Part shown: positions 6,613 through 37,226 of the stretch, one piece after another
Layout of the letters: each line of letters starts with the position of its first letter
How positions within the stretch are numbered: the stretch's first letter is position 1
Source: an uncultured Candidatus Saccharibacteria bacterium
GTDB lineage: Bacteria > Patescibacteriota > Minisyncoccia > Phycocordibacterales > UBA9973
Assembly (NCBI GenBank): GCA_964456475.1
Contig: CAYVZI010000003.1
Location: forward strand, 14,092-78,091
Reading direction: 5' to 3'
Length of the DNA stretch: 64,000 nt
The notes under the pieces: generated by a model
Database searches by the model: none
What the model saw: only the letters and a program-made list of their open reading frames with translations
Told to the model about the DNA's origin: nothing
Made by a program: the position numbers and the translations under genes

Positions 6613-7050
6613 ATGTATTACCACATTCTACTCGCACTCATTGGTCTCGCCGGTTTTTGTATCGCTTCGTACATTTCTCATTGCAAAAATAAAAAGAAAC
6701 CACTCGTGTGTCCGCTTCGCACAAGTTGTGATTTTGTTACGACGAGTGACTATTCAAAATTTCTCGGGATCCACATCGAACACATTGGAATGGCATATTA
6801 TGCCATTGTGACATTGTTGCATTTCAGTATCGTATTCTTCCCTGAATTTGCTACATTTCCTGTTTTGTTGGCAGGACTCACCGCCTCGTCTTGTGCTTTT
6901 CTCTTTTCTTTATATCTCACCGGTATTCAGGCGTTTGTACTTAAGCAATGGTGCACTTGGTGCATTACATCAGCGGTTCTCTGCGCATTAATATTTGTAA
7001 CCACCTATCTTTCTTGGACCGGGGCACCGATTCTCGACATTCTCTCATAA
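6613..7050 (+). CDS. VKOR-family (vitamin K epoxide reductase-like) membrane thiol oxidoreductase
   Basis: Four TM segments, a loop Cys pair (C..C), and a TM CxxC (TWCITS). Confidence 0.5.
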   Translation: MYYHILLALIGLAGFCIASYISHCKNKKKPLVCPLRTSCDFVTTSDYSKFLGIHIEHIGMAYYAIVTLLHFSIVFFPEFATFPVLLAGLTASSCAFLFSLYLTGIQAFVLKQWCTWCITSAVLCALIFVTTYLSWTGAPILDILS

Positions 7051-10876: not shown

Positions 10877-11524
10877 ATGGAAATCAAAGAATATTCCCAG
10901 GTTGGCATGGATGCTGTATCTGAAAGACAAACGATCATCATTGGAATGAGCGTGAACAACAGTTATTTTAACGAAAGTAATATCGAGAAACTTCTTCTTT
11001 GGGCGAGAGAGAAAACCGATTCAGTATTTGTAATGATTCCAGATAAGCCAGCCGTTGCTACATTCTTGTCGTTAGGGTATTCAAACGAGGAGTCAGAACG
11101 AAAAGCTCGACTGAAATCAAATAATCTTGAAAACAAATGTAGGGTGATTATAAAACGACATGATATTCAAGGAATTACAATCATTCGCTGGAATGATGTT
11201 GTTGGGTCTCTTCGGTACGTTGAATCAATTAGAGATATAAAGTATTCGTATGATGACGATATGGAATTTAAAGAAAAACTCCGTTTAACTACAAAAGGTG
11301 TCTTGTCTTACGCCGGCAAAACCGAAATAACAGACAGTGTCATTGATTACGGAGTACTCTTTTTATTGCAAGAGTTGGCATTTATTGCAAGATCAACACT
11401 GATTTTGAAAAAAGAAAAAGTTGCTTACGTATATCATCAAACAATGGAAGTACTCAAAAATATATTTGAAAATAAGTATCAATTTGCAGCTGATCCGAAT
11501 GTCGGGTTTGTAACAGTAGGATAA
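10877..11524 (+). CDS. tRNA-dependent cyclodipeptide synthase (CDPS, AlbC family)
   Basis: IIGMSVNNSYF...LLLWA matches the AlbC IGISAGNSYF...LLQWA region with the catalytic Ser. YGVLFLLQELAFIA matches the conserved Y...E, and VAYVYHQ matches the YH region. Size is about 215 aa. Confidence 0.75.
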   Translation: MEIKEYSQVGMDAVSERQTIIIGMSVNNSYFNESNIEKLLLWAREKTDSVFVMIPDKPAVATFLSLGYSNEESERKARLKSNNLENKCRVIIKRHDIQGITIIRWNDVVGSLRYVESIRDIKYSYDDDMEFKEKLRLTTKGVLSYAGKTEITDSVIDYGVLFLLQELAFIARSTLILKKEKVAYVYHQTMEVLKNIFENKYQFAADPNVGFVTVG

Positions 11525-11574: not shown

Positions 11575-12255
11575 TTATTTTTTCTGCGCGGTTATGATGA
11601 GATACGTCGGATAATTCCATTCGCCAATTCTTTCTGCAGCAGGGAATTCGGCGGCTTCGCGAATCGAACATACGGTAAAATGAGAAAGAAAGTAGTCACT
11701 CAGATATTCAGCCATCGTATGCGATGGTTCTTGAACAGTAATTTCTCGGTTGAAGATTTCTGAGTGCACAATTTCCTTCTTGAAGTAATCGGCTTGCGGA
11801 TTTTTCTTCTCAATGAATTGACGGAATGGGTGAACGACAAGGAATACGAAGTGGCCGCCTTTGCGAATAATGCGTACAACTTCGCGATAGATAGGTTCAA
11901 TGTGTTCGGCGGTTTGCATTGCCCATTTTGATATCACCAGATCAACCTCGTTTGGCTTGAGAAGTGTCTTTGAAAAGTCCCCATGGATTATGCGAGCGTG
12001 AGAGTTTTTCCGAGCAAGTGCAACCATATCAGAAGAACTGTCTATTCCCATACATTTGTGTCCAAGTGAATGAAGGTGGGATATCATGTCTCCTGGTCCG
12101 CAGCCGAGGTCGATCGCATGCCTCTCTTTTTTACCGAGAATGAGTCCAATTGCTCTTTTAAAGTCGTCGACAGATGAACGATTCATTTCTCCAAGACTAT
12201 TTGCAAACGTTTCAGCGATTCCGTCGGTGTATTGCTGTGCGAGATTCTTTTTCAT
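11575..12255 (-). CDS. Class I SAM-dependent methyltransferase
   Basis: Motif I AIDLGCGPGDM and the downstream acidic-loop arrangement of Methyltransf_11/25. Confidence 0.75.
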   Translation of the reverse strand: MKKNLAQQYTDGIAETFANSLGEMNRSSVDDFKRAIGLILGKKERHAIDLGCGPGDMISHLHSLGHKCMGIDSSSDMVALARKNSHARIIHGDFSKTLLKPNEVDLVISKWAMQTAEHIEPIYREVVRIIRKGGHFVFLVVHPFRQFIEKKNPQADYFKKEIVHSEIFNREITVQEPSHTMAEYLSDYFLSHFTVCSIREAAEFPAAERIGEWNYPTYLIITAQKK

Positions 12256-12384: not shown

Positions 12385-13206
12385 ATGCTCTTGAGCTCAA
12401 AACCAAAGATAAATGAAATGATCGTTTCAATCCTGTCCGAAGGGCCAATTGATAGTTTGGCCTTGCTCGAGCGAGTGCAGAAAAAGATGCCAGTGACAAA
12501 GCAGGCGTTCTATAAGGCCCTTCGAGAGCTTTTGTCTGAAGAGGTGGTAACGAAGAATAAGCAGACGATAATTCTCAGTGGTATATGGCTCAATAAATTG
12601 AAAGGATTTGTGGATGGCGTCGAATCAAACTATCTTGCCGAGTCTTCAAAGCAATTCCTCTCACTTGCTGAAGGGGATACGATGATATTTCGCTTCAAAT
12701 CGATTCTAGACCTTGATCTACTTTGGGTGCATTATTTTTATATGCTTGCAAAGAACATTGATGCACCTGTGCTCTTTTATAATCCGCACGAATTCTGGTC
12801 GTTGTTCCGTTCTGATATTCAAAAACAATTGTATATTTGGATTCAGTCAAACAAGAAAAAAGTCTACCAAGTGATTGGAGGTAATACACCGCTCGATACT
12901 TCAACAACAAATTTGAACAAAAAATACGGCCTTGAAATGGCGTATGAAAATGTGGCAAGCCTTCCAAAACATACAAGTATCACAGTGATTGAAGATTATG
13001 TATTTTATACCGTACTCGACAAAAGTACGGCCCTTGAAATTGATCAGCTGTATAAAAAATATACGACTTGGAAGCCGGAGGTTGAAGCTGAGTTGCAAGC
13101 TATTATTGCTCGCATCAAAAAATCAAAGGTAATAATCGAGCGTAATCACAAAAAAGCCGAGAAATTCCGTAAAAAACTCATGAATCATTTCATTTTTTAT
13201 AAATAA
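12385..13206 (+). CDS. wHTH-domain protein of unknown function, paralog B of 9917-10750
   Basis: Same N-terminal MLL...wHTH (TKQAFYKALRELLSEEVVTK) and same C-terminal motifs as paralog A. Confidence 0.55.
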   Translation: MLLSSKPKINEMIVSILSEGPIDSLALLERVQKKMPVTKQAFYKALRELLSEEVVTKNKQTIILSGIWLNKLKGFVDGVESNYLAESSKQFLSLAEGDTMIFRFKSILDLDLLWVHYFYMLAKNIDAPVLFYNPHEFWSLFRSDIQKQLYIWIQSNKKKVYQVIGGNTPLDTSTTNLNKKYGLEMAYENVASLPKHTSITVIEDYVFYTVLDKSTALEIDQLYKKYTTWKPEVEAELQAIIARIKKSKVIIERNHKKAEKFRKKLMNHFIFYK

Positions 13207-13211
13207 TGACA

Positions 13212-13240
13212 AAAAGTACCACTTTGGTGGTGCTTTTTAT
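13212..13240 (+). terminator. Rho-independent terminator after paralog B
   Basis: GTACCAC-TTTG-GTGGTGC followed by TTTTT. Confidence 0.6.
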
Positions 13241-13583
13241 GTCTTACGGGCAAAATCATTAAAAATGTAAGAGTAAAAACTCTTTACAAAAAATTGTAAT
13301 GCTCGTTGAATGCGATAATTAAGTATTACAGTGTAATGCTCAAAAAGTATCGATGAAAAACGGTATAAAAAATGAGTTATCCACCGTTGCGGGAGTGTGA
13401 ATCGGGGATGTATACTATGCAAACAGTTTTAGATTTGTGCATCGAAAATGATATACACTTGTGCAAAATGTGCTCGGGTAACAGTTTTTTGGTGCATAAG
13501 TCACTCATTATAAGTTGGAAACGGGCAAGGTTGCATTCGTCACTTACATTTTTATTGATAAGTGTATTTTGTAGCCCCGGTAA

Positions 13584-14147
13584 GTGGTTAACATTATGAA
13601 AAAAAGTAATTGGTTTGTCTATACGCTCGGATTTGTCGCTTGTTTTTTGGTGCGTCTCATTCCTTTTCGAGCACCAAACATAGAACCAATACTTTCTGCT
13701 CAGATGCCATTTTCGCGTTCCTATGGAGCCCTTGCTGGCTTCTTTTTTGGCTTTGCGAGTATCGTCCTTTTTGATCTTGTAACCAATCATGTTGGTGTTT
13801 GGACGCTTGTTACGGCTTTTGCATACGGATTTTTGGGTGTTGGCGCTACTCTTTATTTCAAGAATAAGGGAAATAGTGCAAAAACCTATGTATCTTTTGC
13901 AATCGTGGCGACAATTGCCTACGACGCAGTCACTGGACTTACTGTTGGACCACTCTTCTTTCATCAACCAGTCACCGTTGCGCTTGCCGGTCAAATACCA
14001 TTCACAATTCTTCATCTTGTAGGAAATATTTCGTTTGCTTACTTCATTAGTCCAGCTCTGTATCGAATGATTGAGTATTATCAAAAACCCAAACCTGTAG
14101 AAAGTGCCTCACTTATTACCAACAACCCTCTTACTAACCTCTCATAA
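13584..14147 (+). CDS. Small polytopic membrane protein, ECF-transporter S-component-like. A B12-related substrate is possible from context only.
   Basis: About 185 aa with 5-6 TM segments, immediately upstream of the class II RNR. No diagnostic motif. Confidence 0.35.
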   Translation: MVNIMKKSNWFVYTLGFVACFLVRLIPFRAPNIEPILSAQMPFSRSYGALAGFFFGFASIVLFDLVTNHVGVWTLVTAFAYGFLGVGATLYFKNKGNSAKTYVSFAIVATIAYDAVTGLTVGPLFFHQPVTVALAGQIPFTILHLVGNISFAYFISPALYRMIEYYQKPKPVESASLITNNPLTNLS

Positions 14148-14152
14148 ATCTT

Positions 14153-16486
14153 ATGGCAACAAAAAAAACAAAAAACCCAGTCACTAAAAAGACTTCTGTA
14201 TCAAAAAAGGTGACTGTTGCAAAAAAAGGTTCATCTGAAAAAGTTTCATTAATCCAGAAGCGTGATGGTAATGTGGTTCCATTTTCGATTGAACGAGTTG
14301 AGCGAGCAGTACTGAAAGCTTTTGGGGCAACAGGAGAGGGGGGAGAGTCTGAAGCAAAAAAAGTCGCTGAGTCCGTATTGCATATTCTTGCTCATCAAAA
14401 ACAAGAATCAGGAAAGGGGTATGTACCACATGTTGAGCGCGTACAAGACTTTGTTGAGCAAGCACTCATCACACTCAAATTTCCAGTTACCGCAAAGGCA
14501 TACATCTTGTATCGTGAAGAACGCACTCAGAAGCGTAAGGCTGGAGTCTTTGTTCCAGAAAAAGTAAAAGAACTCGTAGCGGCTAGTAAAAAATATTTCC
14601 GTAACCCGCTCGCCGAGCTTGTGTACTACCGCTCATATTCAAACTGGATGAGTGAGGAAGGACGTCGCGAAACCTGGATCGAAACAGTCGACCGCTACAT
14701 GTCATTTATGAAAGAGAACCTCGGTTCAAAACTTTCATCAAGTGAATATGCCGAAGTTCGCGAAGCAATCCTCAATCACGAAGCACTTCCTTCAATGCGC
14801 CTTTTGCAATTTTCTGGCAAGGCTGCACACCGCACAAATGTGTGTGCATACAACTGTTCATTCATCGCCCCACAATCATTCCAAGATTTTGCTGAGATTA
14901 TGTATATCTCAATGTGTGGAACAGGAGTAGGATGGTCTGTTGAGAGTCGCAATATTCAAGCACTTCCTCAGGTCAAAATGCAGACAGGTAAAAAACTGCC
15001 AACCCACTACATCGTAGACAGTAAGGAAGGCTGGGCAGACGCATTTTCTCTTGGTATGAAGACTTGGTATGAAGGAAACGATATTGAATTCGATTTTTCT
15101 CTACTTCGACCAGCTGGTGCACGTCTCAAGACTATGGGTGGAAAGAGTTCTGGTCCGGCACCACTTCAGTCACTTCTTGAATTTACTCGTGAGCGTATTC
15201 TTCGCCGACAAGGACGTCACCTTACAAACCTCGATGCACACGACGTTATCTGTAAAATCGGAGACTGTGTTGTAGCTGGAGGAGTGCGTCGCAGTGCGAT
15301 GATTTCACTCTCTGATCTTGATGATGAAGCAATTCGTGATTCGAAGAAAGGACAGTTTTATCTCAACGAAGGACAGCGTATGCTTGCCAACAACTCTGCT
15401 GTATATGAATCAAAGCCTGAGACCGAAGAATTTTTGGACGAATGGGTTGCGCTTGTAAAATCAAAGTCAGGCGAGCGCGGAATCTTCAATCGTGGGGGTC
15501 TCGCAAAGACATTGCCAAAGCGCCGTCTCGATCAATTCAAAGGTGGTATCTATCCAGCATGGGGAACAAATCCATGCGGAGAAATTATCTTGCAATCAAA
15601 GCAATTCTGTAATCTTTCAGAAGTGGTAGCACGTGCTGAAGATACAGAAGAGACCTTGCTCAAGAAGATTCGTATTGCAACAATCCTTGGAACATATCAG
15701 TCAACGCTCACGTTCTTCCCATACCTTTCAAAAGAATGGAAAAAGAATTGTGAAAAGGAGCGCTTGCTCGGAGTTTCGATTACTGGTCAATGGGATAGTT
15801 CTACTGCTCGAAAAGGCGATGTACTCAAGCGCTTGAAGGATGAAGCAGTTAAGATCAACAAAAAATACGCAGAGAAATTCGGTATCACACAATCTACTTG
15901 TATCACCTGTGTGAAGCCATCAGGAACTGCATCTCAGACCGTGGACTGTTCAAGTGGAATGCATCCTCGTCATGCTCCGTATTACATCCGACGTGTTCGC
16001 ATTTCGGCAACAGATGCACTTTTCAAAATGCTTCGCGATCAAGGCGTGCCGTATTATCCAGAAGTCGGACAGACAATGGAAAATGCATCGACCTTCGTTC
16101 TTGAATTCCCAGTCAAGGCTCCAGACGGTGCAATCTGTAAAGATGATGTTGATGCAATCACTCAACTCGAACACTGGAAGGTGGTGAAGGTAAACTATAC
16201 CGAACACAATCCATCAGTAACTGTTTCTGTGGGAGATGATGAATGGCTCAAGGTGGGTAACTGGGTGTATGAAAACTGGGATATTGTTGGAGGACTTTCG
16301 TTCTTGCCTCGCAGTAACCACGTCTATCGACTCGCTCCGTACGAAGCAATCACCAAAGAAAAATACGAAGAACTTCTTAAGCAAGTAAGTCACATCGACT
16401 TCTCAAAGATTGTTACGTACGAGAAAGACGACGAGACTGAGATTAAGAAGGAATTAGCCTGCGTAGCAGGCGTCTGCGAAGTATAA
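14153..16486 (+). CDS. nrdJ: Class II (adenosylcobalamin-dependent) ribonucleoside-triphosphate reductase NrdJ with an N-terminal Lys-rich tail and ATP-cone
   Basis: ATP-cone (LIQKRDGNVVPFSIERVERAV), NPCGEI catalytic motif, and 777 aa monomeric class II size. Confidence 0.8.
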   Translation: MATKKTKNPVTKKTSVSKKVTVAKKGSSEKVSLIQKRDGNVVPFSIERVERAVLKAFGATGEGGESEAKKVAESVLHILAHQKQESGKGYVPHVERVQDFVEQALITLKFPVTAKAYILYREERTQKRKAGVFVPEKVKELVAASKKYFRNPLAELVYYRSYSNWMSEEGRRETWIETVDRYMSFMKENLGSKLSSSEYAEVREAILNHEALPSMRLLQFSGKAAHRTNVCAYNCSFIAPQSFQDFAEIMYISMCGTGVGWSVESRNIQALPQVKMQTGKKLPTHYIVDSKEGWADAFSLGMKTWYEGNDIEFDFSLLRPAGARLKTMGGKSSGPAPLQSLLEFTRERILRRQGRHLTNLDAHDVICKIGDCVVAGGVRRSAMISLSDLDDEAIRDSKKGQFYLNEGQRMLANNSAVYESKPETEEFLDEWVALVKSKSGERGIFNRGGLAKTLPKRRLDQFKGGIYPAWGTNPCGEIILQSKQFCNLSEVVARAEDTEETLLKKIRIATILGTYQSTLTFFPYLSKEWKKNCEKERLLGVSITGQWDSSTARKGDVLKRLKDEAVKINKKYAEKFGITQSTCITCVKPSGTASQTVDCSSGMHPRHAPYYIRRVRISATDALFKMLRDQGVPYYPEVGQTMENASTFVLEFPVKAPDGAICKDDVDAITQLEHWKVVKVNYTEHNPSVTVSVGDDEWLKVGNWVYENWDIVGGLSFLPRSNHVYRLAPYEAITKEKYEELLKQVSHIDFSKIVTYEKDDETEIKKELACVAGVCEV

Positions 16487-16497
16487 AAGATTTCTAA

Positions 16498-16532
16498 AAT
16501 GAGCGCGCTACTTTGTTGCCGCGCTCATTTTG
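16498..16532 (+). terminator. Rho-independent terminator after nrdJ
   Basis: AAAATGAGCGCGC-loop-GCGCGCTCATTTT. Confidence 0.7.
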
Positions 16533-16601
16533 TTCCCGCAATGTACCTCATGTACATCTTGGTCGCAAAATTCGCTAGCGCCTCGTATCGCATCTCATTT
16601 T
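16533..16601 (+). repeat. Copy A of a 68-nt intergenic element containing the palindrome TGTAC-N5-GTACA (16542-16556). Copy B is at 34073-34140.
   Basis: About 80% identity between the copies. Both lie downstream of a terminator and upstream of a + strand gene. Confidence 0.7.
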
Positions 16602-16621
16602 AAAAACTTTTAATTCAAACT

Positions 16622-17179
16622 ATGCTCTACACCAGAAAAGGCGACGGAGGAACAACTAAAACATTCGGCTGCGATCAGCGAGTTTCAAAAAGCTCGGCTA
16701 TCGCTGAGGCGCTCGGCTCTCTCGACGAAATCAATTCGTTTCTTGGTCTTTTGAAGTTGAAATCAGGTGATGCTGTTTGGGAATTGCCAGAAGAGAAGTT
16801 GGCAGTCGCCGAAACAGTCAATCGCATTCAACAAGACCTCTTCATTGTGCAGGCCGAGCTCGCTGGCGCAGAGAAAACGATTGTCGAAGACAAGGTCAAA
16901 TGGCTCGAATCTATCATTGATGGTATCGAAAAGACACTTCCGCCCATCACCACATTCTTCGTCTCCGGTGGTACCGAGCTCGCCGCACTTTCTGATGTCT
17001 GTCGCACGATTGTACGCCGTGCAGAACGTCGTGTGGTCGCCGTACACGAAGAGGCGACTCGTCCAGTAGGTGAATTCACTCGTGCTTATCTCAACCGCCT
17101 CTCAAGCGTCTTTTACGCCTTTGCTCGTGAGGCAAATCATGTGGCTGGTGTTGCTGAACAATCTCCGAAATACGAATAA
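16622..17179 (+). CDS. PduO-type ATP:cob(I)alamin adenosyltransferase
   Basis: N-terminus YTRKGDGGTTKTFGCDQRVSK matches the PduO/MMAB signature. Confidence 0.75.
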   Translation: MLYTRKGDGGTTKTFGCDQRVSKSSAIAEALGSLDEINSFLGLLKLKSGDAVWELPEEKLAVAETVNRIQQDLFIVQAELAGAEKTIVEDKVKWLESIIDGIEKTLPPITTFFVSGGTELAALSDVCRTIVRRAERRVVAVHEEATRPVGEFTRAYLNRLSSVFYAFAREANHVAGVAEQSPKYE

Positions 17180-17189
17180 TTAGCATTGG

Positions 17190-17258
17190 GTCATTCCAAA
17201 CTTGATTTGGAATCCAGGCTTAATAGTAATGGATTCCGGATCGGAGTCCGGAATGACA
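17190..17258. repeat. MITE-like element: two inverted hairpin modules (GTCATTCC-arm-loop-arm-GGAATCCAGG, then GGATTCCGGA-loop-TCCGGAATGACA)
   Basis: Family members at 19141-19304, 36190-36220, 38781-38809 and 44615-44690. Confidence 0.7.
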
Positions 17259-17693
17259 AAACAAATGGAAATTCTTCAATTCGGAACAAAAGAGCCTGGT
17301 GTGGAATATAAAGACCGACCGGGAACATACGCGCTTATTCTTAATGAGAACGGGTTATTTTGTGCAACAGAAAATTCTTGGGGAAAATATAGTTTGCCTG
17401 GTGGAGGAACTGACGAAGGTGAAAGTGACGAGGTGGCTCTTCGTCGAGAAATTCAGGAAGAACTTATACGAGATATTGAGTTGTTCCAGTTTGTCGGTGA
17501 AGCAAAGCAATTTGTGCGCAGTAAGAAAAATGGTGATGTAAACAAACATTGTAAATACTTTATTGTCTCACTTGCGCCGGGTGAAGATGGGCAAGGGGAT
17601 GTAATCACTCGCTGGGTCAACCTCGAGCAATTCAAAGAGAAGTCATACCAGGAAGCACATGTTTGGGCACTTGAAAAATTTTTACTGAAATAA
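17253..17693 (+). CDS. NUDIX hydrolase
   Basis: Nudix box GGGTDEGESDEVALRREIQEELI. Start moved past the repeat element. Confidence 0.7.
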   Translation: MTKQMEILQFGTKEPGVEYKDRPGTYALILNENGLFCATENSWGKYSLPGGGTDEGESDEVALRREIQEELIRDIELFQFVGEAKQFVRSKKNGDVNKHCKYFIVSLAPGEDGQGDVITRWVNLEQFKEKSYQEAHVWALEKFLLK

Positions 17694-17696
17694 TTT

Positions 17697-18329
17697 ATGA
17701 AAAAAATCTATTTTGTCCGTCATGGAGAAAGTGAAGGGAATATTGGTCCAGTGCAACAGGATCACACGTCACCCCTTACTCAAAAAGGGAAGGAACAGGC
17801 TCACTCTGTAGCGAAGCGACTTGCTGGTGTTTCTGTCGGAGTTATTGTTTCGAGCAATATGCTCCGTGCAAAAGAAACAGCAGAGGTGGTTGCTGGTGTG
17901 ACGAATGCTCCTGTCGAACATTCAGATTTTTTTGCTGAGCGCAGAAAGCCCTCGCTTATGTATGGTAAGTCGAAAGACGATACTGAATCGGTTGATGCGT
18001 ATAAAACGGTGGTCGCTAATTTTCATTTGCCTGGATTTCGTCATTCTGACGAAGAAAATTTCGATGATTTGAAAGATCGCGCAAAAAATGCGATGGCATA
18101 TCTCGCAAGTCGTCCAGAAGAAACCATTGTCGTTGTCACTCACGGATATTTTATGCGAATCATTATGGCGTACGCATTATTTGGAGATTCTCTTACTGGG
18201 GAAGAGTGCTCGCGTTGTGCACGATTTTTTCATATGGAAAATACAGGAATCACAATTTTGGAACATACGGAGAAAAAAGAAAATCCATGGTGGCTATGGG
18301 TGTGGAATGACCATGTACATTTAACCTAA
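17697..18329 (+). CDS. Histidine phosphatase (phosphoglycerate mutase superfamily). Could be CobC-like alpha-ribazole phosphatase, from context.
   Basis: YFVRHGESEGN RHG motif and a downstream VVTHGYFMR His motif. Confidence 0.65.
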   Translation: MKKIYFVRHGESEGNIGPVQQDHTSPLTQKGKEQAHSVAKRLAGVSVGVIVSSNMLRAKETAEVVAGVTNAPVEHSDFFAERRKPSLMYGKSKDDTESVDAYKTVVANFHLPGFRHSDEENFDDLKDRAKNAMAYLASRPEETIVVVTHGYFMRIIMAYALFGDSLTGEECSRCARFFHMENTGITILEHTEKKENPWWLWVWNDHVHLT

Positions 18330-18424
18330 ATTATATTTTGCTTCGAAAATAACCTTACAAAACAAGGTTATTTTTGATTGACAAATTAGTCATTGTTTGA
18401 TATAATACCGACAAATTTCCTCAT

Positions 18425-18862
18425 ATGAAAAACACATTAGAAAAGAAATATTTTTACTATTCTGCTAAAGCCTGGCAGCTGATGAGTCTTGCACTCTTTT
18501 TTGTTACACTTCGAATGATATGTATCGAAATGTCCGCAGTTGTAATAGGTAATACTGTTGCTATCTTTGCTTTTGCCTCGGGTATTATGTTGCCACTGTT
18601 GTCTGCTTCAGCACTTTGTCCACCAGAAAATAATAAAAAAAATAATGGTGGAAATAGTCGAGTGTACACGTTTAGTATGGCATTGTTTATTATGACAATA
18701 ATGTTCTCGGGTATTATGTTGAGTAACATCGGATTTGTGGTTCAATCGTACAAACAATCAGCTCTCGGATGGGCCGTTGCATTATTTATTCTTTTTTTAG
18801 TTGAATCAACATTAATTCGCAGGTGGAAACGTAGATATGGACAGGAACTAAAAAATGCATGA
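18425..18862 (+). CDS. Hypothetical membrane protein
   Basis: Four hydrophobic segments. No recognised family. Confidence 0.4.
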   Translation: MKNTLEKKYFYYSAKAWQLMSLALFFVTLRMICIEMSAVVIGNTVAIFAFASGIMLPLLSASALCPPENNKKNNGGNSRVYTFSMALFIMTIMFSGIMLSNIGFVVQSYKQSALGWAVALFILFLVESTLIRRWKRRYGQELKNA

Positions 18863-18870
18863 ACAAAATT

Positions 18871-18905
18871 TGAAAATGCCCATGTAAATGGGCATTTTTT
18901 TATCC
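18871..18905 (+). terminator. Rho-independent terminator
   Basis: AAAATGCCCAT-GTAA-ATGGGCATTTTTTT. Confidence 0.75.
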
Positions 18906-19140
18906 CCATTTGCGTAAAAATGGGGGAGGTGTAGAATACGTGGGCAGTTGAAAAAGAAATAACATTTGTGTTTGGGGAAGTGAGGTGAAAATCCTCCACA
19001 GTGCCGCTACGGTGATCCAAGAATTTACTTGGGAAGTCCGATTACCAATCACGAATAGGTGCGTCCCGAGCAGGAAAATGAGTATGCGAATGTGTACCCA
19101 GATATAGACTCCTCGGCGGGAGTTTTTTTGTGCTCGTATT

Positions 19141-19304
19141 GTCATTCCCGAGTACTCATCGGGAATCCAGGTTGAATGAATTTAAACCCAGAACCTGGAT
19201 CCATTACATGGACTGTACACCTTTCGCTTTCCGAGTACGGAATACTCAAGGTCTTGCGGAACGGGTCCCAACCCATTCCTCACTCGGTCAAGCCGAGGAT
19301 GACA
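19141..19304. repeat. Longer MITE-like element (about 164 bp) whose termini match the hairpin family (left GTCATTCCCGAGTACTCATCGGGAATCCAGG, right CATTCCTCACTCGGTCAAGCCGAGGATGACAC)
   Basis: The terminal modules are inverted copies of each other and match the elements at 17190 and 44615. Confidence 0.6.
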
Positions 19305-19320
19305 CAAATCCACACGCGAT

Positions 19321-19830
19321 ATGTATAAAAAATATACACCAATCATCATTTTTGGAATTCTCATTCTTGCTACAGCAGGAGCTTTGGGTTATTCGATACA
19401 AAAAAAGGACAATTTTATTGCTCCGTATGTTATTCCCGTTGCGTCACCAGTTCCAGTCGCTAAAACCCCAGACTCTTCTCCTGTTGTAAAAAACGACTTG
19501 GTTCAGAAAAAAGTAGACCAAACACCAAGCACCATAAACCAAACACCAACGCTTTCTATTACAGTTGTTGCTGGTGAGACGAAGGTGGGTATTCCGTACG
19601 TTGAAAACGAAACATTTTATAGCACGCTTGTTTCTGCTCAGAAATCTGGATTGGTTACATTTGCTGGACGTGAGTATTCAGGACTTGGATTTTTTGTGAG
19701 TGATATTGGAGATTTGCATATGACTCCTGGAAAAAATTTGTTGTATTACATTAATGGCAAGGAAGCGTCAGTCGGCGTGTCTACTTATATCCCGAAGAAC
19801 GGCGACGTCGTGGAATGGAGACTTAATTAA
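19321..19830 (+). CDS. Secreted or anchored DUF4430-domain protein (the transcobalamin beta-domain-like fold)
   Basis: N-terminal TM or signal segment. C-terminus YYINGKEASVGVSTYIPKNGDVVEW matches the DUF4430 pattern. Confidence 0.5.
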   Translation: MYKKYTPIIIFGILILATAGALGYSIQKKDNFIAPYVIPVASPVPVAKTPDSSPVVKNDLVQKKVDQTPSTINQTPTLSITVVAGETKVGIPYVENETFYSTLVSAQKSGLVTFAGREYSGLGFFVSDIGDLHMTPGKNLLYYINGKEASVGVSTYIPKNGDVVEWRLN

Positions 19831-19834
19831 AATT

Positions 19835-22033
19835 ATGAAAAACTTTTTTATAAAATTTGGTGTTGTGCTTTCTTTTGTTCTTGTGTTTGGAACTGTGGCT
19901 GTTCGTGCCGAGGTGGTGGCTGATACCACTGTGCCTGTAATCACACTTTTAGGCGATGCAAACCTTTCAATTGAGCAAGGGGTGACATACATCGATGCGG
20001 GTGCGACTGCGAGTGACGAAACAGACGGAGATATTACCGCGAATATTGTTATAACCGGAACAGTGGATACTGCGACCGTTGGTGTATATACAGAAACGTA
20101 TGCTGTATCTGATGTTGCAGGTAATCCTGCGACGCCAGTAGTTCGTACGATAACAGTCACTCCCGTAGTTGTTGTGGTTCCAACCGAAACAATTATTGTT
20201 CGAAACGGAGATACTGTCATTTGGCAAGGAGAAGTACCATTGCCTGATGACGGAACAGAAACGATCAGTGACGTAAATGGAAATCCTCATACGGTGAGCA
20301 CTCGCAGTGTCCTTGCTCTTGTAAAAGATGCTGAAACGACAAGTGGTGCATTTACACTTTCAAACCTAACTTATTATGATTCATTCGGAGCTTTCTATTT
20401 CAAATGTATTACTCCGACCGGAGGCACAGAACTTTGCGACAATTGGCAGTATGCAGTCGGCGGTACGACACCATGGACGAGTATTGATCAAACAATACTT
20501 ACCGGCGGAGAGACCATTGGAATTTATTTTGGAAATAACCACCAGGTTTCTTTTGGCACAACTACAATTTCGGCAGGTGGTACACTCACCGCAACTGCAG
20601 AAAAATATAATTATATTGATAATACCTGGAGTCCGTTAACCGGAGTTTCTGTTGGTATAACAACGCCAAACGAATCCGATCCGTGGAATCCGATCGTTAT
20701 TTCAACGAATCCTGTCGATTCCAACGGTAGTGCAGTAATAACAATTGAGAATCCTGGAGTTTATAATGCAGGTATTGTGGAGGACTATTATTTTCCTTCG
20801 TATGTAGTTACGGTAAATGCTGTTTCTGGGGGAGGTGGCGGAGGTGGAACTACTTCGACAACGTTCAGTGTGCCAAATGCAATTGCTTATTTGAAATCAG
20901 TGCAGTCGAGCGATGGTTCTTTTGGCGGTTCAGATCTATACACTGATTGGGTGGCGGTTACCTATGGAGCAGGTAGTGTTTTTGATAACTCTCGTAATTC
21001 TCTTCTTTCGTATCTTGCTTCACATAACACACTCTACTCACTCGTAACCGATAATGAACGCCGTGCAATGGCACTGCTCGCACTCGGGCAAAATCCGTAT
21101 TCGTATAACGGTGTAAATTATATCGAAGCAATTACTCAATCGTTTGATGGTACCCAAATTGGGGACGTGCATTTAATCAACGATGATGTTTTTGGATTGA
21201 TTGTACTTTCAAAAGCAGGGTATACGACAAGTGATGTAGAAATTTCAAAAACAATTGAATACATAGTGAAGGCGCAGCTGGTAAACGGATCATGGGACGG
21301 AAGTGTCGATATGACAGCTGCTTCAATTCAAGCACTCTCACTATTTCCGGGTGCACCTGGTGTTTCAGAATCGGTTACAAAAGCGGGTATGTATTTGCAA
21401 AATAATCAGAGCGGGGATGGTGGCTGGGTAAACGTGTCATCATCAAGTTGGGCGACTCAGGCAATGAACACACTGAATGTGTTGTGGACAAACAACGGAA
21501 AAACACCAGTACATTATTTTGGTGGTATACAGGCATCTGATGGTGCGGCATCTTTGAATTCTGAATCATTACAAAATAGGATTTGGGCGACGAGCTATGC
21601 TATTCCAGCAGTGCTTGGAAAATCATGGGATGCCATTTTGATTGGTGTTGCCCGCCCAAGTGTAAGCACTGGCGGTAACAATACGAACGGTGAGAGTGGT
21701 ACCACCAATCAGACTGACACACTCGTCGAAACAAAAAAAATCGAAATTGTAGAATTTCAGAATGATGCAATCGAAAAAAAGCCAAAACCAGAAGAGTTGG
21801 AAAAAGAAACAGAACGTGTGATAAATCAAAATCCAACGCAGCTCGTTTTTGCTCAAGAAAATAAAGTGCCACCTGTTCCGTCTGAAGATGCTCTTCCGCA
21901 AAATAATTTTGAATCGAATCTACTGACTGCAAGTGCAGAAGGGAGTAGGGTTCCAGTGCCTCTCTTTGTAACTGTCGGTGCGGGGATACTTGCTCTTGTT
22001 GGCGGCTTTTGGTATTGGTTTCGTCGACCGTAA
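19835..22033 (+). CDS. Large cell-surface protein with four regions: an Ig-like (DUF5011-type) domain, a DUF4430 domain, an alpha/alpha-toroid with prenyltransferase-like repeats, and a C-terminal TM anchor
   Basis: Signal peptide MKNFFIKFGVVLSFVLVFGTVAVRA. The DUF5011-like stretch is ITLLGDANLSIEQGVTYIDAGATASDETDGDITA. The DUF4430-like stretch is CDNWQYAVGG...GIYFG. Repeated DGSFGG, SDGAAS and WAT motifs mark the toroid. The tail is GILALVGGFWYWFRRP. Confidence 0.6.
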   Translation: MKNFFIKFGVVLSFVLVFGTVAVRAEVVADTTVPVITLLGDANLSIEQGVTYIDAGATASDETDGDITANIVITGTVDTATVGVYTETYAVSDVAGNPATPVVRTITVTPVVVVVPTETIIVRNGDTVIWQGEVPLPDDGTETISDVNGNPHTVSTRSVLALVKDAETTSGAFTLSNLTYYDSFGAFYFKCITPTGGTELCDNWQYAVGGTTPWTSIDQTILTGGETIGIYFGNNHQVSFGTTTISAGGTLTATAEKYNYIDNTWSPLTGVSVGITTPNESDPWNPIVISTNPVDSNGSAVITIENPGVYNAGIVEDYYFPSYVVTVNAVSGGGGGGGTTSTTFSVPNAIAYLKSVQSSDGSFGGSDLYTDWVAVTYGAGSVFDNSRNSLLSYLASHNTLYSLVTDNERRAMALLALGQNPYSYNGVNYIEAITQSFDGTQIGDVHLINDDVFGLIVLSKAGYTTSDVEISKTIEYIVKAQLVNGSWDGSVDMTAASIQALSLFPGAPGVSESVTKAGMYLQNNQSGDGGWVNVSSSSWATQAMNTLNVLWTNNGKTPVHYFGGIQASDGAASLNSESLQNRIWATSYAIPAVLGKSWDAILIGVARPSVSTGGNNTNGESGTTNQTDTLVETKKIEIVEFQNDAIEKKPKPEELEKETERVINQNPTQLVFAQENKVPPVPSEDALPQNNFESNLLTASAEGSRVPVPLFVTVGAGILALVGGFWYWFRRP

Positions 22034-22575: not shown

Positions 22576-23343
22576 ATGCAAGAACACACCACCCGAGAGG
22601 AGAGTGCTCCATCAGGAGAACAAAAAATAAAAGCAATTTCTTTGACGCAGGCAGTTTTGATCAATGGTCTCATAATTGCAATCGCTATTATTATTGGTGC
22701 ATGCATTATTCACGGTACATTCGATTCAAGCAACGATACGAAGCAGGGATCAGGTGAGACAAAGCAAGCTCTGTCAGTCGATATCAAAAATGTTTCGCTT
22801 TCTCACGAGCCGTTCATCGGTAATACGGAGGCAAAAGTAGTTGTTGCGTACTGGTCTGATTATCAGTGTTCGTATTGTAAAAAATTTGAAACAGGGCCAT
22901 TTCAGGAAATTATAAAGAACTACGTTTCGACCGGTGATGTTGCCATCGTTTTTAAGGATTACTCGTTCCTTGGTCCGGATTCAACTACTGCTGGCCTCTA
23001 TGATCGTGCGGTTTGGAATTTGTATCCCGAGCAGTACTTTGCTTGGAGAGAAGCAATGTTTGTTGCTCAAGACGGAGTGAATAGTGGATTTGGTGATGAA
23101 GCGAGTGTTGTAAAGCTCACCGGAACAATTCCTGGAATTGATGCAAAAAAAGTAGAGGCTGATGTGAAAAAAAATAACAATGCATATACGAAGCTTATGG
23201 AGGAATCACGTTCGCAGGGCTTAGATTTTGGAATCAATGGAACACCTTCATTTATCACTGGAACGCAGTTGATTGGGGGATACGTTGATTATGCTGGTTT
23301 CAAGACCCACCTCGATAAGCAATTGAAACAAATAAAAAAATAA
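22576..23343 (+). CDS. DsbA-family thiol:disulfide oxidoreductase, membrane anchored
   Basis: N-terminal TM segment and a thioredoxin CxxC (YWSDYQCSYCKKF). Confidence 0.7.
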   Translation: MQEHTTREESAPSGEQKIKAISLTQAVLINGLIIAIAIIIGACIIHGTFDSSNDTKQGSGETKQALSVDIKNVSLSHEPFIGNTEAKVVVAYWSDYQCSYCKKFETGPFQEIIKNYVSTGDVAIVFKDYSFLGPDSTTAGLYDRAVWNLYPEQYFAWREAMFVAQDGVNSGFGDEASVVKLTGTIPGIDAKKVEADVKKNNNAYTKLMEESRSQGLDFGINGTPSFITGTQLIGGYVDYAGFKTHLDKQLKQIKK

Positions 23344-28559: not shown

Positions 28560-28590
28560 AAAGCGCCCTACGGGCGCTTTTCTTTTTTAA
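28560..28590. terminator. Bidirectional terminator
   Basis: AAAAGCGCCC-TAC-GGGCGCTTTTCTTTTTT. Confidence 0.75.
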
Positions 28591-29123
28591 AAATTATTTT
28601 TCCACATCATGGATTCTTTTGGTAACGCTTCTTGTCCGGAATATTTTGCGTTTGCTTTTTTACTGTAGAGATTTTCCACTTCTCCATCCACGATGTAATA
28701 AATGAGCTGACCTACTGGCATACCGGCATAAATGCGAACGGGGATAGTACAAGAGAGTTCGAGTGTCCAGAATCCACAGAAGCCGACGTCGCCCTTGCCG
28801 GCTGTAGCGTGAATGTCGATGCCGAGACGGCCCGTAGAAGACTTTCCCTCGAGGAATGGTACATGTTTGTGTGTCTCGGTATATTCGAGTGTTGAACCCA
28901 AATAGAGCTGTCCTGGCTGGAGTACGTAGCCTTCTTCTGGAATTTCAAAGTGACGGATCTGGTTGTGCTTCTTGGCGTCGATCATTCCGTCCACGTACTG
29001 GGCGAGGTGCTTAGAAATATGGACGTCGTACGAATTTCCACCCATATTTTTTGGGTCAAAAGGAGTAATGACGATTTCGCCTTTTTCGATGCATTCGAGG
29101 ATTTTTTTATCAGATAAGATCAT
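28587..29123 (-). CDS. dcd: dCTP deaminase
   Basis: MILSDKKILECIEKGEIVITPFDPKNMGGNSYDVHI... Dcd/dUTPase-fold signature. Confidence 0.85.
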   Translation of the reverse strand: MILSDKKILECIEKGEIVITPFDPKNMGGNSYDVHISKHLAQYVDGMIDAKKHNQIRHFEIPEEGYVLQPGQLYLGSTLEYTETHKHVPFLEGKSSTGRLGIDIHATAGKGDVGFCGFWTLELSCTIPVRIYAGMPVGQLIYYIVDGEVENLYSKKANAKYSGQEALPKESMMWKNNF

Positions 29124-29144
29124 ATGTGCTGAAAGTTTCGCATA

Positions 29145-29558
29145 TTACAATAAATTGTCAATCGCTTGTTGTGACATTTTGGCGATGGGGGAAGGGAGAG
29201 TATCAAAAGTAAACCAGCCGATTTCTGAACATTTTTCCGATTCTTGAATCGATGGCGTTCCTGAGATTATTTTGGTTTGAAAAATATTCGTGAGCCAGTG
29301 CTGATTTTCTTCGGAAACGATATAGTCGTATGAGGGGAGCTGTTTTGTAATTTCCACAACAACGCTGAGTTCTTCTTGTAATTCCCTTACTACAGTTTCT
29401 TTCATTGTTTCTCCAAAATTAACTTTACCACCGGGAAGTGCCCATGCACCCGGCTCGGTTCCGACATTTTGTCCACGCTTCATCAATAAAAATTCGCCGG
29501 CATCATTTATGATGAATGCGCCAACGCCGACGCCGATGTAATCAATGCCAGGTTTCAT
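29145..29558 (-). CDS. NUDIX hydrolase
   Basis: Nudix box GGKVNFGETMKETVVRELQEELSV. Start placed at MKPGIDYIGVG, giving a 4-nt overlap with folA. Confidence 0.75.
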   Translation of the reverse strand: MKPGIDYIGVGVGAFIINDAGEFLLMKRGQNVGTEPGAWALPGGKVNFGETMKETVVRELQEELSVVVEITKQLPSYDYIVSEENQHWLTNIFQTKIISGTPSIQESEKCSEIGWFTFDTLPSPIAKMSQQAIDNLL

Positions 29559-30067
29559 TTTGTGTATGTAATAAAAGTATACGAGAATGGATTTTTTTCG
29601 TCCGCAACATGTGGTTCTTCGGAGATTATGTTCCATTCGTTTCCAATCTCCGGAAAGAATGTATCAGCTTCAGGTGAATCATCTACACGTGTTATGTAGA
29701 GCTTGTTCGTTCGAGGAATACTTTCTTTGTAGAGTTCGCCGCCACCAATAATGAAAACTTCGGTCTCATCTTGTTTCTCTTCAAAATGTTTTCCTTGTTC
29801 GAGTGCTGCAAAACGGAGGGCTTCATCAAGCGAGTGAACAATAGTGATACCTGGCTGGTAATAGTTGAGGTCTCGAGTGACTACAATATTTTCTCGGTCG
29901 GGGAGAGGGCGACCGATTGATTCAAATGTCTTACGTCCCATGATGACGGTGTGTCCACGAGTAGTATCGCGAAAATGCTTCATGTCGGCAGGCAAACTCC
30001 AAAGGAGTTTGCCTGCCTTGCCGAGCTCGTTCTTTTTTCCAATTGCTGCGATGAGAGAGATTATCAT
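29555..30067 (-). CDS. folA: Dihydrofolate reductase
   Basis: MIISLIAAIGKKNELG...LPW...MGRKTFESIG. Confidence 0.9.
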   Translation of the reverse strand: MIISLIAAIGKKNELGKAGKLLWSLPADMKHFRDTTRGHTVIMGRKTFESIGRPLPDRENIVVTRDLNYYQPGITIVHSLDEALRFAALEQGKHFEEKQDETEVFIIGGGELYKESIPRTNKLYITRVDDSPEADTFFPEIGNEWNIISEEPHVADEKNPFSYTFITYTK

Positions 30068-30072
30068 ATGTC

Positions 30073-31014
30073 TTATACAGCAATCGGAGCTTTGATTGCA
30101 GGATGCGGATCGTATCCAATAAGCTCGAAGTCATCAATAGTAAAATCTTCAAGTTTCATTTTTTCTGGATTTATTTTGAGTGTTGGCATCGGACGAATAT
30201 CTCCACGGCGAGCGAGTTGTTCTTTGGCTTGTTCAATATGATTGAGATACAAATGTGTGTCACCGCCAGTCCAAACGAATTCGCCAAGCTCAAGACCTGT
30301 CATTTGGGCAACAATCATAGTGAGTACTGCATACGATGCAATGTTGAAGGGGACACCAAGAAACGTATCGCAACTGCGTTGGTAGAGTTGGCAAGAAAGT
30401 TTGCCGTCTGCTACGTAGAATTGAAACAAACAATGACATGGTGGAAGTCCTGCAACTGCCATCTCGTCGAGTTGTCCAACATTCCAGGCTGATACTATAA
30501 GACGACGATCATCCGGTCGAGTTTTGATGCGTTCAATAATTTGTGAGAGTTGGTCAATGTGTTGCCCGTTTGGTGTTGGCCATGCACGCCATTGGTACCC
30601 ATAGATTGGTCCAAGATTTCCATGTTCTTTTGCGAAGGCATCGTCCGTTTTTATTTTTTCGACATATTCTGTGAGACCATTTTTCCACTCCTCGCTGTCA
30701 CTTGCTGGAACTGGTAAGCCGAGCTTTTTTAAATATGCCTTGTATGGCCATTCATCCCAAATATGCACATTATTCTGTGCGAGATATTGCAAATTGGTAT
30801 CACCGCGCATAAACCAAAGTAGCTCATGGATGATGGACTTGATTCCGACTTTCTTTGTAGTAATAAGTGGGAATCCATCGGCAAGATTAAAACGCATTTG
30901 ATACCCCAGAACACTTTTTGTGCCCGTTCCTGTACGGTCTGTTTTTGTTGCCCCGTTGATAAGAAGATGATCGAGAAGATCGAGATACGATTCGTCTACA
31001 TGTTTGCCTTTCAT
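30073..31014 (-). CDS. thyA: Thymidylate synthase (ThyA, folate-dependent)
   Basis: [11 protein letters not shown]...[21 protein letters not shown] active-site region. Confidence 0.92.
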
Positions 31015-36180: not shown

Positions 36181-36189
36181 TTTTATTAG

Positions 36190-36220
36190 CCTGGATTCCC
36201 GGTCAAGCCAGGAATGACAC
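36190..36220. repeat. Solo hairpin module of the MITE-like family (CCTGGATTCCCGGTCAAGCCAGGAATGACAC)
   Basis: Reverse-orientation match to the 17190 and 38781 modules. It ends 8 nt before the DNPH1 start. Confidence 0.65.
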
Positions 36221-36228
36221 TCAAAATT

Positions 36229-36633
36229 ATGAAAATTTATTTTGCAGGATCGATACGAGGAGGACGGGGAGATGCACAATTATACAAGCAGATTATTGAA
36301 CTTCTTGGTCAATACGGGGAAGTTCTTACTGAACATATTGGCGATGAGACACTCACGTCAGCAGGAAGTGCTATGGAGCCTCAATATATATTCGAGCAAG
36401 ACACAGACTGGCTTCGCGAAGCAGATGTTGTTGTTGCTGAAGTGACCACACCGTCTCTTGGGGTAGGATACGAAATTGGTCTTGCTGAATCACTCGAAAA
36501 AAGAATCTTGTGCTTGTATCGAGAACAGGAAGATTCTCACGTTTCGGCAATGATTCTCGGCAACCGCAATCTTTCAATCGCGCAATATGAATCGATTACT
36601 GATATCGAAAATTATTTACAAGATTATTTTTAA
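36229..36633 (+). CDS. 2'-deoxynucleoside 5'-phosphate N-hydrolase (DNPH1/Rcl family, nucleoside 2-deoxyribosyltransferase fold)
   Basis: MKIYFAGSIRGGRGD signature. Confidence 0.7.
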   Translation: MKIYFAGSIRGGRGDAQLYKQIIELLGQYGEVLTEHIGDETLTSAGSAMEPQYIFEQDTDWLREADVVVAEVTTPSLGVGYEIGLAESLEKRILCLYREQEDSHVSAMILGNRNLSIAQYESITDIENYLQDYF

Positions 36634-36637
36634 TAAC

Positions 36638-37222: not shown

Positions 37223-37226
37223 TTTT

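Follow-up and report, generated by a model that had tools for sequence, protein, structure and literature searches.

How does a bacterium with a very small genome come by the cobalamin (vitamin B12) that its deoxynucleotide synthesis calls for, and what tells it when to go looking? The question is raised by a stretch of DNA of 64,000 nucleotides (contig CAYVZI010000003.1, positions 14,092 to 78,091; hereafter the window, which comprises the sequence data on hand for this organism) from a Patescibacterium of the Nomurabacteria/Paceibacteria group. Patescibacteria, or candidate phyla radiation (CPR) bacteria, have tiny genomes and are dependent on other organisms. Between positions 13377 and 22033 of the window we find a gene for a class II, adenosylcobalamin (AdoCbl)-dependent ribonucleotide reductase (RNR), NrdJ, accompanied by genes for a membrane protein resembling the S-components of energy-coupling factor (ECF) transporters, for a PduO-type adenosyltransferase and for two surface proteins, one small and one large, with a cobalamin riboswitch in front of the latter two. 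We consider it likely that this is a two-unit cluster for cobalamin salvage and use, in which the surface proteins would trap the vitamin, the S-component would carry it inward, PduO would adenosylate it and NrdJ would use it. Features lie on the + strand unless stated otherwise.

Which genes belong to the system can be read from their linkage in other genomes. The large surface protein is encoded in at least 276 species-level genomes, and with an alignment of its family we retrieved 80 related loci from species-representative genomes, the hosts of which are all Patescibacteria (Nomurabacteria, Paceibacteria and similar). Running the proteins of the window against these loci by tblastn, we find that the small-protein gene adjoins the large-protein gene in 75 of the 80, while NrdJ is present in 46, the S-component in 45 and PduO in 28. 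The S-component always stands beside NrdJ (45 of the 46 NrdJ-bearing loci, in either order), and two gene orders recur: S-component, NrdJ, PduO, riboswitch, small, large; and NrdJ, S-component, riboswitch, small, large. For the three other genes of the island the same search gives 2 of 80 loci (a histidine phosphatase) and none of 80 (a Nudix hydrolase and a 145-aa membrane protein). Because of these counts, and because the 145-aa gene also has its own promoter and terminator, the conserved system consists of five genes and the riboswitch, and the remaining three genes are passengers. An earlier description of this DNA, made from its letters alone (the sequence-only reading), had proposed a B12 salvage-and-use island around a class II RNR, which the enzyme identities and the conservation of the cluster bear out. 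Its open reading frames are all present where it placed them; of the linked B12 genes that it counted as seven, five stand (S-component, NrdJ, PduO and both surface proteins), and the Nudix, histidine phosphatase and 145-aa membrane genes fall away.

The evidence for regulation by cobalamin comes from an element that the sequence-only reading overlooked. When Rfam covariance models are run over the whole window, the sole riboswitch found is an aptamer of the AdoCbl-II family (RF01689) at 18965-19055, after the 145-aa unit and before the two surface-protein genes. It scores 38.3 bits, the gathering threshold being 36.5. Because this score is marginal, we checked the call on the relatives. Homologues of the aptamer are present in 60 of the 80 loci (E<=0.01), all of them on the coding strand and directly upstream of the small-protein gene. 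In an alignment of 46 of these sequences the core is invariant (GCCGCUACGGU, AGUCCGA), and compensatory double changes occur at 17 of the 24 predicted base pairs. Run on six relatives, Rfam reports a cobalamin-clan riboswitch in five, at 36.6-56.6 bits and above the gathering thresholds, with the best model of the clan (CL00101) varying among orthologous loci between RF01689, RF01482 and RF00174. Short aptamers of the RF01689 type can favour methyl- or aquo-cobalamin over AdoCbl.

The aptamer is followed by an intrinsic terminator at 19106-19131, a hairpin and U-run that forms the putative expression platform of the riboswitch. The same combination lies 58-105 nt past the aptamer in 58 of the 60 loci, compared with 40 of 600 random segments of the same DNA (6.7%). 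From the invariant core, the covariation and the terminator, we regard this as a genuine, conserved, transcription-terminating cobalamin riboswitch, predicted to bind its ligand and to control both surface-protein genes; on the same evidence the terminator is a predicted transcriptional OFF switch.

Two enzymes of the first transcription unit also point to cobalamin. NrdJ (14153-16486) is a class II, AdoCbl-dependent RNR of the monomeric ribonucleoside triphosphate reductase (RTPR) type by its Pfam, NCBIfam and PDB matches. Family assignments here and below rest on Pfam and NCBIfam hidden Markov models (HMMs), with bit scores read against each model's cut-off. The protein carries an N-terminal ATP-cone (64.7 bits), the RNR_Alpha domain, the barrel with the TNPCGEI motif and a C-terminal CxxxC tail. 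Among NCBIfam models it fits the AdoCbl-dependent RTPR TIGR02505 best, at 298 bits, a little below the equivalog cut-off of 340; its best PDB match is 1L1L, the class II RTPR of L. leichmannii (E 9e-51), and since the closest structure is a class II enzyme, class III is ruled out. Aligned with the L. helveticus RTPR it is 27% identical across the full core (E 1e-55), with TNPCGEI and the C-terminal cysteine pair in register. PduO (16622-17179) scores 153 bits with PF01923 and 149 bits with TIGR00636, whose cut-off is 108, and is 30% identical to the PduO of the Lactobacillus cluster. Both enzymes are thus what the sequence-only reading took them for, an AdoCbl-dependent class II reductase with ATP-cone and NPCGEI (Pfam, TIGR02505, 1L1L) and a PduO-type cob(I)alamin adenosyltransferase (PF01923, TIGR00636).

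The membrane protein that precedes NrdJ (13584-14147; 187 aa if read from a GTG start, 183 aa if read from the ATG at 13596) had been called ECF-S-component-like, and this is upheld by PF07155, at 29.4 bits against a cut-off of 26.7. Its family counts 1104 relatives of ~181 aa and is highly conserved (RLIPFRxPNIEP, GxWT, AYG, QIPFTxxHLxGN). The family profile reaches a single PDB entry, 6FNP_A, weakly (E 0.031). Chain A of 6FNP is the S-component CbrT of L. delbrueckii, which is specific for vitamin B12 (PMC5997447). Aligned profile to profile (hhalign), the two families share motifs and match along 151 columns at a probability of 95.6% (E 1e-8), though at only 19% identity; the best Pfam family is PF07155 for the protein of the window and PF12822 for CbrT members. 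By these profiles the relation to CbrT is one of remote homology, not clearly of family membership, and we describe the protein as CbrT-like.

Next we consider the two proteins under the riboswitch, both of which are placed at the cell surface, from sequence and model, by an N-terminal anchor or signal peptide and, in the large one, by a C-terminal transmembrane (TM) helix. The small protein (19321-19830) consists of an N-terminal membrane anchor, a linker rich in proline, serine and threonine, and a C-terminal domain of the SLBB/DUF4430 type, that is, like the β-domain of transcobalamin (PF14478, 36.5 bits against a cut-off of 23.8). The large protein (19835-22033, 732 aa) is assigned by the Pfam matches Bact_surface_Ig-like and SQHop_cyclase_C and by an AlphaFold2 (AF2) model, which was built on a 115-sequence alignment and has a predicted local distance difference test (pLDDT) score above 90 over residues 30-610. 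From its N-terminus it comprises a signal peptide (19835-19909), an Ig-like domain (19922-20170, residues 30-112), an SLBB/transcobalamin-β-like domain (20171-20539, residues 113-235, modelled as 113-240), a β-sandwich (20540-20824, residues 236-330) followed by a glycine linker, an α/α toroid (20867-21649, residues 345-605) followed by a disordered stalk, and the TM anchor (21950-22021), with signal peptide and anchor again read from both sequence and model. The family of its tri-domain module is of moderate size, with 554 clusters (at 50% identity) at E<=1e-30, mostly aligned end to end.

The sequence-only reading had made both of these secreted DUF4430 proteins. The small one passes PF14478; the large one gives no match to that model even at E<=10, nor any to PF01122, the family of the mammalian B12 carriers. 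We therefore reject a direct DUF4430 or PF01122 label for the large protein and keep the assignment at the level of fold and of transitive homology. A whole-chain Foldseek search, in which general toroid and Ig matches predominate, returns the thioester-containing domain (TED) of complement/α2-macroglobulin proteins, terpene synthases and transcobalamin, all at about E 1e-5 to 1e-7, with several transcobalamin structures matching the toroid at E ~1e-5 and a poor root-mean-square deviation (rmsd). Because this search is non-specific, residues 113-240 were modelled alone (pLDDT 92; helix at 47-58, then strands 61-64 and 67-69 in the numbering of the fragment). With this model as query, the top 19 PDB matches are all transcobalamin β-domains (human, rat, bovine), haptocorrin, intrinsic factor or 3U7Z, a bacterial DUF4430 structure. 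Their E values run from 1.7e-3 to 2.8e-2, and the next matches are unrelated β-grasp proteins at E>=0.19; the best superposition is on haptocorrin, with a TM score of 0.59 and an rmsd of 3.6 Å. As modelled, then, this stretch folds like the β-domain of transcobalamin, and its helix is followed by a β-hairpin.

Homologs of the large protein supply the transitive part. One of them, P0105, passes the DUF4430 model at 34.7 bits, and the match aligns column for column with residues 181-233 of the window protein; two others, P0030 (28.6 bits) and P0089 (25.4 bits), pass the PF01122 cut-off of 25 within the toroid. The large protein has two cysteines only, C191 and C201, both invariant and both in the SLBB domain. 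The arrangement of its domains varies across the family: P0105, P0004 and others have two tandem modules of SLBB plus β-sandwich before the toroid, or have the Ig-like domain swapped for other surface domains. Judged by these architectures, the presumed capture module on the surface is modular.

Putting these elements together, the following mechanism would account for the cluster. Unit 1 (13377-17179) would express the S-component, NrdJ and PduO from a promoter with a DnaA-box-like site, and unit 2 (18900-22033) would express the two surface proteins and be shut off by cobalamin through the riboswitch and its terminator. When B12 is scarce, transcription would read through into the small and large genes. 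Transcobalamin holds B12 between domains of two kinds, an SLBB β-domain and an α/α toroid, and by analogy with that sandwich the SLBB domains and the toroid of the surface proteins would trap corrinoids outside the cell. The trapped corrinoid would be handed to the CbrT-like S-component, which would bind cobalamin and move it inward; PduO would then adenosylate it and NrdJ would use the resulting AdoCbl to make deoxynucleoside triphosphates (dNTPs). Binding of B12 by the surface proteins, the hand-over and the substrate of the S-component are predictions from analogy, and the cluster as a whole suggests a dependence on scavenged B12 for making DNA precursors in a large group of Patescibacteria.

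A number of observations weigh against this reading. The S-component lies outside the control of the riboswitch, its identity to CbrT is low and its direct PDB match is weak. EcfA/EcfT and BtuCDF are absent both from the window and from the conserved surroundings of the cluster in the 80 loci. Even when its SLBB region is isolated, the large protein fails the DUF4430 HMM at E<=10; hhalign of its family against that of the small protein is negative; and for its toroid transcobalamin is no better a match than TED domains or terpene cyclases. The literature that we searched holds no B12-binding experiments on bacterial extracellular SLBB proteins, no work on this cluster in Patescibacteria and no binding or transport data for any member. 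An operon of L. sakei with the same types of protein is linked by experiment to heme (bioRxiv 10.1101/864751). Finally, the window carries an extra ~190 nt (19132-19320) between the terminator and the start codon of the small gene, where relatives have ~10-20 nt and the usual distance from aptamer to start is 70-100 nt. Within this insert lies a palindromic element of ~65 nt (19139-19209), which nhmmer finds elsewhere and in the other orientation in loci L003 (9914-9983) and L020 and which is single-copy in the window; it is probably a small, inserted, mobile repeat. As for the S-component, NrdJ and PduO, their place outside riboswitch control makes sense, because the enzyme requires B12.

How the transport would be energised bears on the first alternative, in which the surface trap feeds an S-component that acts on its own, like BtuM, in reduced genomes that have no ECF module. 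The sequence-only reading saw no energising module in the window, and this is correct: the 64 kb hold no ATPase with an ATP-binding cassette (ABC) signature and no cob, cbi, btu or ecf gene. The lack of ECF A/T genes in the conserved neighbourhood speaks for the solitary arrangement, as do the precedents of BtuM and some BioY proteins (PMC6072759). The ABC ATPases in the 1.3 Mb of related flanks that we examined are exporter-type half-transporters and small proteins of FtsE/LolD size only, with no tandem EcfA. On the other side, group II S-components are usually encoded far from the ECF module that they share, so that absence from the neighbourhood says little. It says little also because CbrT alone gave no B12-dependent growth of E. 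coli (PMC5997447). Nor is the family BtuM-like: at E<=10 its profile picks out none of the BtuM chains in the PDB, and its near-invariant cysteine is C20 in TM1 only, with none in loop 3, for which reasons we reject membership of the BtuM family. We regard a solitary S-component as unlikely, if worth keeping in view, and the cluster could help to answer whether such a protein works without an ECF module. As a separate observation, about 15 of the loci have an exporter-fold ABC half-transporter (ABC_membrane plus ABC_tran, ~590 aa) a few kb upstream of the cluster (for example at 707-2566 in L057 and 1654-3435 in L079), a linkage that may be mere synteny. The mycobacterial exporter-fold ABC protein BacA can import cobalamin.

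The substrate of the S-component raises a second alternative, that its cargo is not B12 but another compound required together with NrdJ (such as a nucleoside, a queuosine precursor or another vitamin), while B12 enters by another route. All S-component specificities are remotely homologous, the Pfam match is weak and to a riboflavin S-component family, and the distance from CbrT and the missing riboswitch point the same way. Set against this, CbrT is the sole solved S-component that the profile reaches, the similarity extends over the full length of the profiles with shared motifs, and the constant place beside NrdJ mirrors the arrangement proven in Lactobacillus; we judge a non-B12 substrate improbable.

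A third alternative concerns the ligand of the whole surface system, which with the S-component might take up heme or another tetrapyrrole in place of cobalamin. The L. sakei operon makes this worth asking, and the toroid and SLBB folds alone do not fix a ligand; against it stand a cobalamin-clan riboswitch directly in control of the surface pair in ~60 loci, a cluster centred on an AdoCbl-dependent enzyme and a cobalamin adenosyltransferase, and a B12-specific protein, CbrT, as the nearest solved S-component. Heme uptake is, on this balance, very improbable. The last alternative, that the large protein is a terpene cyclase/prenyltransferase or an α2-macroglobulin-like protease trap that stands in a B12 context by coincidence, draws on SQHop_cyclase_C (29.8 bits), on a PDB sequence-profile search with the family that finds only repeats of the squalene-hopene cyclase (SHC) type, as the best matches, and Ig domains, on some database names and on the TED-containing complement/α2-macroglobulin proteins and terpene synthases at the top of the whole-chain fold search, and is scarcely tenable for a secreted, membrane-anchored protein whose riboswitch-controlled gene stands beside a DUF4430 gene in nearly all loci and which contains a transcobalamin-β-type domain. 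We reject both enzyme identities, the cyclase since the DVDDTA (DxDD) site of SHC aligns to SVDMTA, the protein is exported and TIGR01787 scores 35.6 against a cut-off of 322.7, and the thioester protein since the toroid has no CGEQ motif, the sole two cysteines lying in the SLBB domain.

Having set these alternatives beside the salvage-and-use cluster, we return to its two promoters. The sequence-only reading drew attention to the long leader before the S-component gene (13207-13583) and could find no B12 box in it; a separate, sensitive Rfam scan of this leader gives noise only, in agreement. A riboswitch in the 377-nt leader is thus rejected, and the regulatory RNA of the island is the one 5.4 kb downstream, before the surface-protein genes. 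The first element of the leader is instead the terminator of the upstream gene (12385-13206), a hairpin ACCAC/GTGGT with a T-run at 13218-13240. It is followed by the promoter of the S-component/NrdJ/PduO unit at 13377-13416, made up of TTATCCAC(C) at 13377-13385, a -35 element TTGCGG at 13387-13392 and, after a spacer of 18 nt, a -10 element TATACT at 13411-13416, which places the predicted transcription start at ~13423 and gives a 5' untranslated region of ~160 nt. Conservation of the leader is confined to the two closest relatives, and the promoter block is kept in L002 and L003. The leader holds no NrdR boxes, and a test for such boxes before the nrdJ unit shows no enrichment, with 0.38 vs 0.28 sites per kb.

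The promoter of the riboswitch unit, at 18900-18937, is built in the same way: TTATCCCCA at 18900-18908, a T, a -35 element TTGCGT at 18910-18915 and a TG-extended -10 element TAGAAT at 18932-18937. In both promoters of the island a DnaA-box-like motif (TTATCCAC / TTTTCCACA) thus directly abuts the -35 element, and these two are the only TTATCCAC-like sites with a correctly spaced -10 in the whole window. Among the relatives, TTATCCAC occurs at the same place, in the same orientation and at the same spacing in 20 of 46 upstream regions of related operons, a density of ~1.0/kb against a background of 0.06/kb (~17-fold), and a DnaA-box-like motif sits at the position of the riboswitch promoter in 18 of 59 related loci against a background of 4.5%. 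The variants TTATCCACA and TTTTCCACA match the DnaA-box consensus, TTWTNCACA. In E. coli the RNR genes are under DnaA control. The placement of the motif suggests a possible coupling of dNTP supply and B12 capture to DnaA, or else to a different factor that reads this site. A different motif, the 14-nt palindrome-like TAGTT[G/T]CG[A/C]AACTA, is found just downstream of the -10 element in 19 of the 46 operon upstream regions, in either orientation, ~25-85 nt before the S-component or NrdJ start (examples in L021, L038, L006 and L033; background 0.036/kb). It is absent from the window, and by its form looks like the operator of a regulator.

One may combine the boldest elements of the foregoing into a single proposal: an S-component that works with no ECF ATPase, fed by a two-protein trap that the riboswitch induces, from a cluster whose two promoters are tied to the replication initiator through their DnaA-box-like sites. 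We hold this combination to be doubtful. If it were true, an ECF-free S-component with a surface trap would be a minimal route of B12 import, the DnaA-box-like promoters would link the capture of B12 and the making of dNTPs with the initiation of replication, and the cluster would offer a living bacterial model of the sandwich of β-domain and toroid that is thought ancestral to the animal B12 carriers.

The passenger genes fill the space between PduO and the riboswitch. The Nudix hydrolase (17202-17693; NUDIX, 45 bits in Pfam) is followed by a generic branch-1 histidine phosphatase (17697-18329; His_Phos_1, 123 bits), for which a place in the CobC/alpha-ribazole phosphatase superfamily had been proposed. 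The CobC label does not hold, with TIGR03162 at 67.7 bits against a cut-off of 162.9; given this score, similar scores from phosphoglycerate mutase families and the rare linkage, we reject a role as alpha-ribazole phosphatase, and no cobS, cobT or cobU gene accompanies it in the window. The 145-aa gene (18425-18862) forms an independent unit at 18378-18898, between the two transcription units of the island, with a promoter at 18378-18406 that matches the sigma-70 consensus perfectly (12 of 12 positions, plus TG) and a terminator at 18873-18898; its product is a multi-pass membrane protein that matches no Pfam or NCBIfam family. For it and for the Nudix hydrolase, a role in the cluster is rejected on the absence of conserved linkage.

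Downstream of the large gene, an all-against-all clustering of the open reading frames in the related flanks finds a thioredoxin-like protein in 25 loci, DsbB in 22 and an ArsR regulator in 16. The window has a secreted, DsbA-like protein of thioredoxin fold two genes downstream (22576-23343; PF13462 in locus L001; NF041057 at 62 bits against a cut-off of 190). It might assist in forming the disulfides of the surface proteins, though the link is weak. A VKOR homologue at 6613-7050 is a further disulfide-formation gene in the window.

Three other features of the window lie outside the cluster. Genes of deoxynucleotide metabolism are dense 7-17 kb downstream of the island, at 28587-31014 on the - strand and 34927-38764 on the + strand: dCTP deaminase, a Nudix protein, dihydrofolate reductase, thymidylate synthase, serine hydroxymethyltransferase, nucleoside 2-deoxyribosyltransferase, thymidylate kinase, another Nudix protein and dUTPase. 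An isoleucyl-tRNA synthetase of 1139 aa (41187-44606) has an unusual architecture, in which a His_Phos_1 domain (residues 505-671, 109 bits) splits the catalytic core at about the usual position of the editing domain. A cyclodipeptide synthase (10877-11524; PF16715, 98 bits) adjoins an S-adenosylmethionine-dependent methyltransferase on the - strand (11575-12255), and to go by these family matches the two may make up a small locus for a natural product, within a genome that is reduced.

We close by comparing the cluster with known systems. Its riboswitch is like others of Rfam clan CL00101 in its core, in its covarying P1 and hairpins and in its terminator platform before B12-acquisition genes, and differs in nothing essential. 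For the gene content, the counterpart is the nrdJ-cbrS-cbrT-pduO cluster of Lactobacillales, for which Rodionov et al. 2009 is said to be a source alongside Santos et al. The cbrT gene sits in this cluster, and ECF-CbrT has been shown to import both cobalamin and cobinamide (Santos et al. 2018, PMC5997447). At the position of cbrS, flanked by nrdJ and cbrT, L. helveticus (loci L082/L083) has a gene for a 136-aa DUF4430 protein, to which our small protein shows local similarity and of which it is the counterpart. For this reason we count the two as the same kit of four functions (RTPR-type NrdJ, secreted DUF4430 protein, ECF-type S-component and PduO). Here, in contrast, the DUF4430 gene stands in a second unit with the 732-aa SLBB-plus-toroid protein under a cobalamin riboswitch, whereas Rfam detects no riboswitch at the Lactobacillus locus; the gene order is another one, NrdJ has an ATP-cone, and identities are 19-30%, which therefore argue for an old shared design and not for recent transfer.

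The surface proteins have a precedent of their own. Burroughs, Balaji, Iyer and Aravind defined in 2007 a transcobalamin-like clade of SLBB β-grasp domains. In bacterial surface proteins such a domain is joined to an α/α toroid that may precede or follow it, Ig domains are frequent, and a paralogous SLBB protein is often encoded alongside; the hosts lack B12 synthesis, there is linkage to CbiO/CbiQ, and the role predicted was B12 scavenging (PMC1796856). The small and large pair described here is alike in its paired SLBB domains, in the SLBB domain with a C-terminal toroid and in the Ig-like domain. The 2007 proteins come mainly from low-GC Gram-positives and some archaea, are CbiO/CbiQ-linked and have an LPXTG anchor, whereas ours come from Patescibacteria, with a β-sandwich between SLBB and toroid, a C-terminal TM anchor, no CbiO/CbiQ nearby and a riboswitch. 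Of the in-silico evidence to date, a cobalamin riboswitch in direct control of transcobalamin-like surface proteins in ~60 diverged loci speaks, in our view, most clearly for the 2007 prediction that such proteins capture B12. The proteins are good candidates for its first biochemical test.

Other systems share parts of the design. The operon Lsa1836-1840 of L. sakei, an ECF operon linked to heme uptake, encodes the secreted transcobalamin β-like Lsa1839 and α-like Lsa1840 (bioRxiv 10.1101/864751); it resembles our cluster in its S-component and in two exported proteins that supply β-domain and toroid for a proposed capture and hand-over of a tetrapyrrole, and differs in having EcfA-A' and EcfT, in its tie to heme and in lacking NrdJ and PduO, while here β-domain and toroid also occur fused. 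The mammalian carriers transcobalamin, intrinsic factor and haptocorrin (PF01122) are built from the same types of α/α toroid and SLBB β-domain; in our protein, by contrast, β comes before α with a β-sandwich between, and the whole is anchored in the membrane in place of being a soluble carrier. BtuM, a solitary S-component-like B12 transporter of Proteobacteria with Cys80 in loop 3 as cobalt ligand, works in a host without an ECF module (Rempel et al. 2018, PMC6072759). It is likewise a small membrane protein of S-component fold that is implicated in B12 uptake and has no adjacent ECF module, but our S-component has no detectable sequence kinship with it, no evident equivalent of Cys80, and extracellular SLBB partners. 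The sequence-only reading had wondered whether the surface proteins and the membrane protein might be a new route of corrinoid capture. They are not, since the kit is already known from the Lactobacillus cluster and from the 2007 prediction for SLBB-plus-toroid proteins; what we find is a new lineage's version of a system that was predicted, and in part proven, in lactic acid bacteria.

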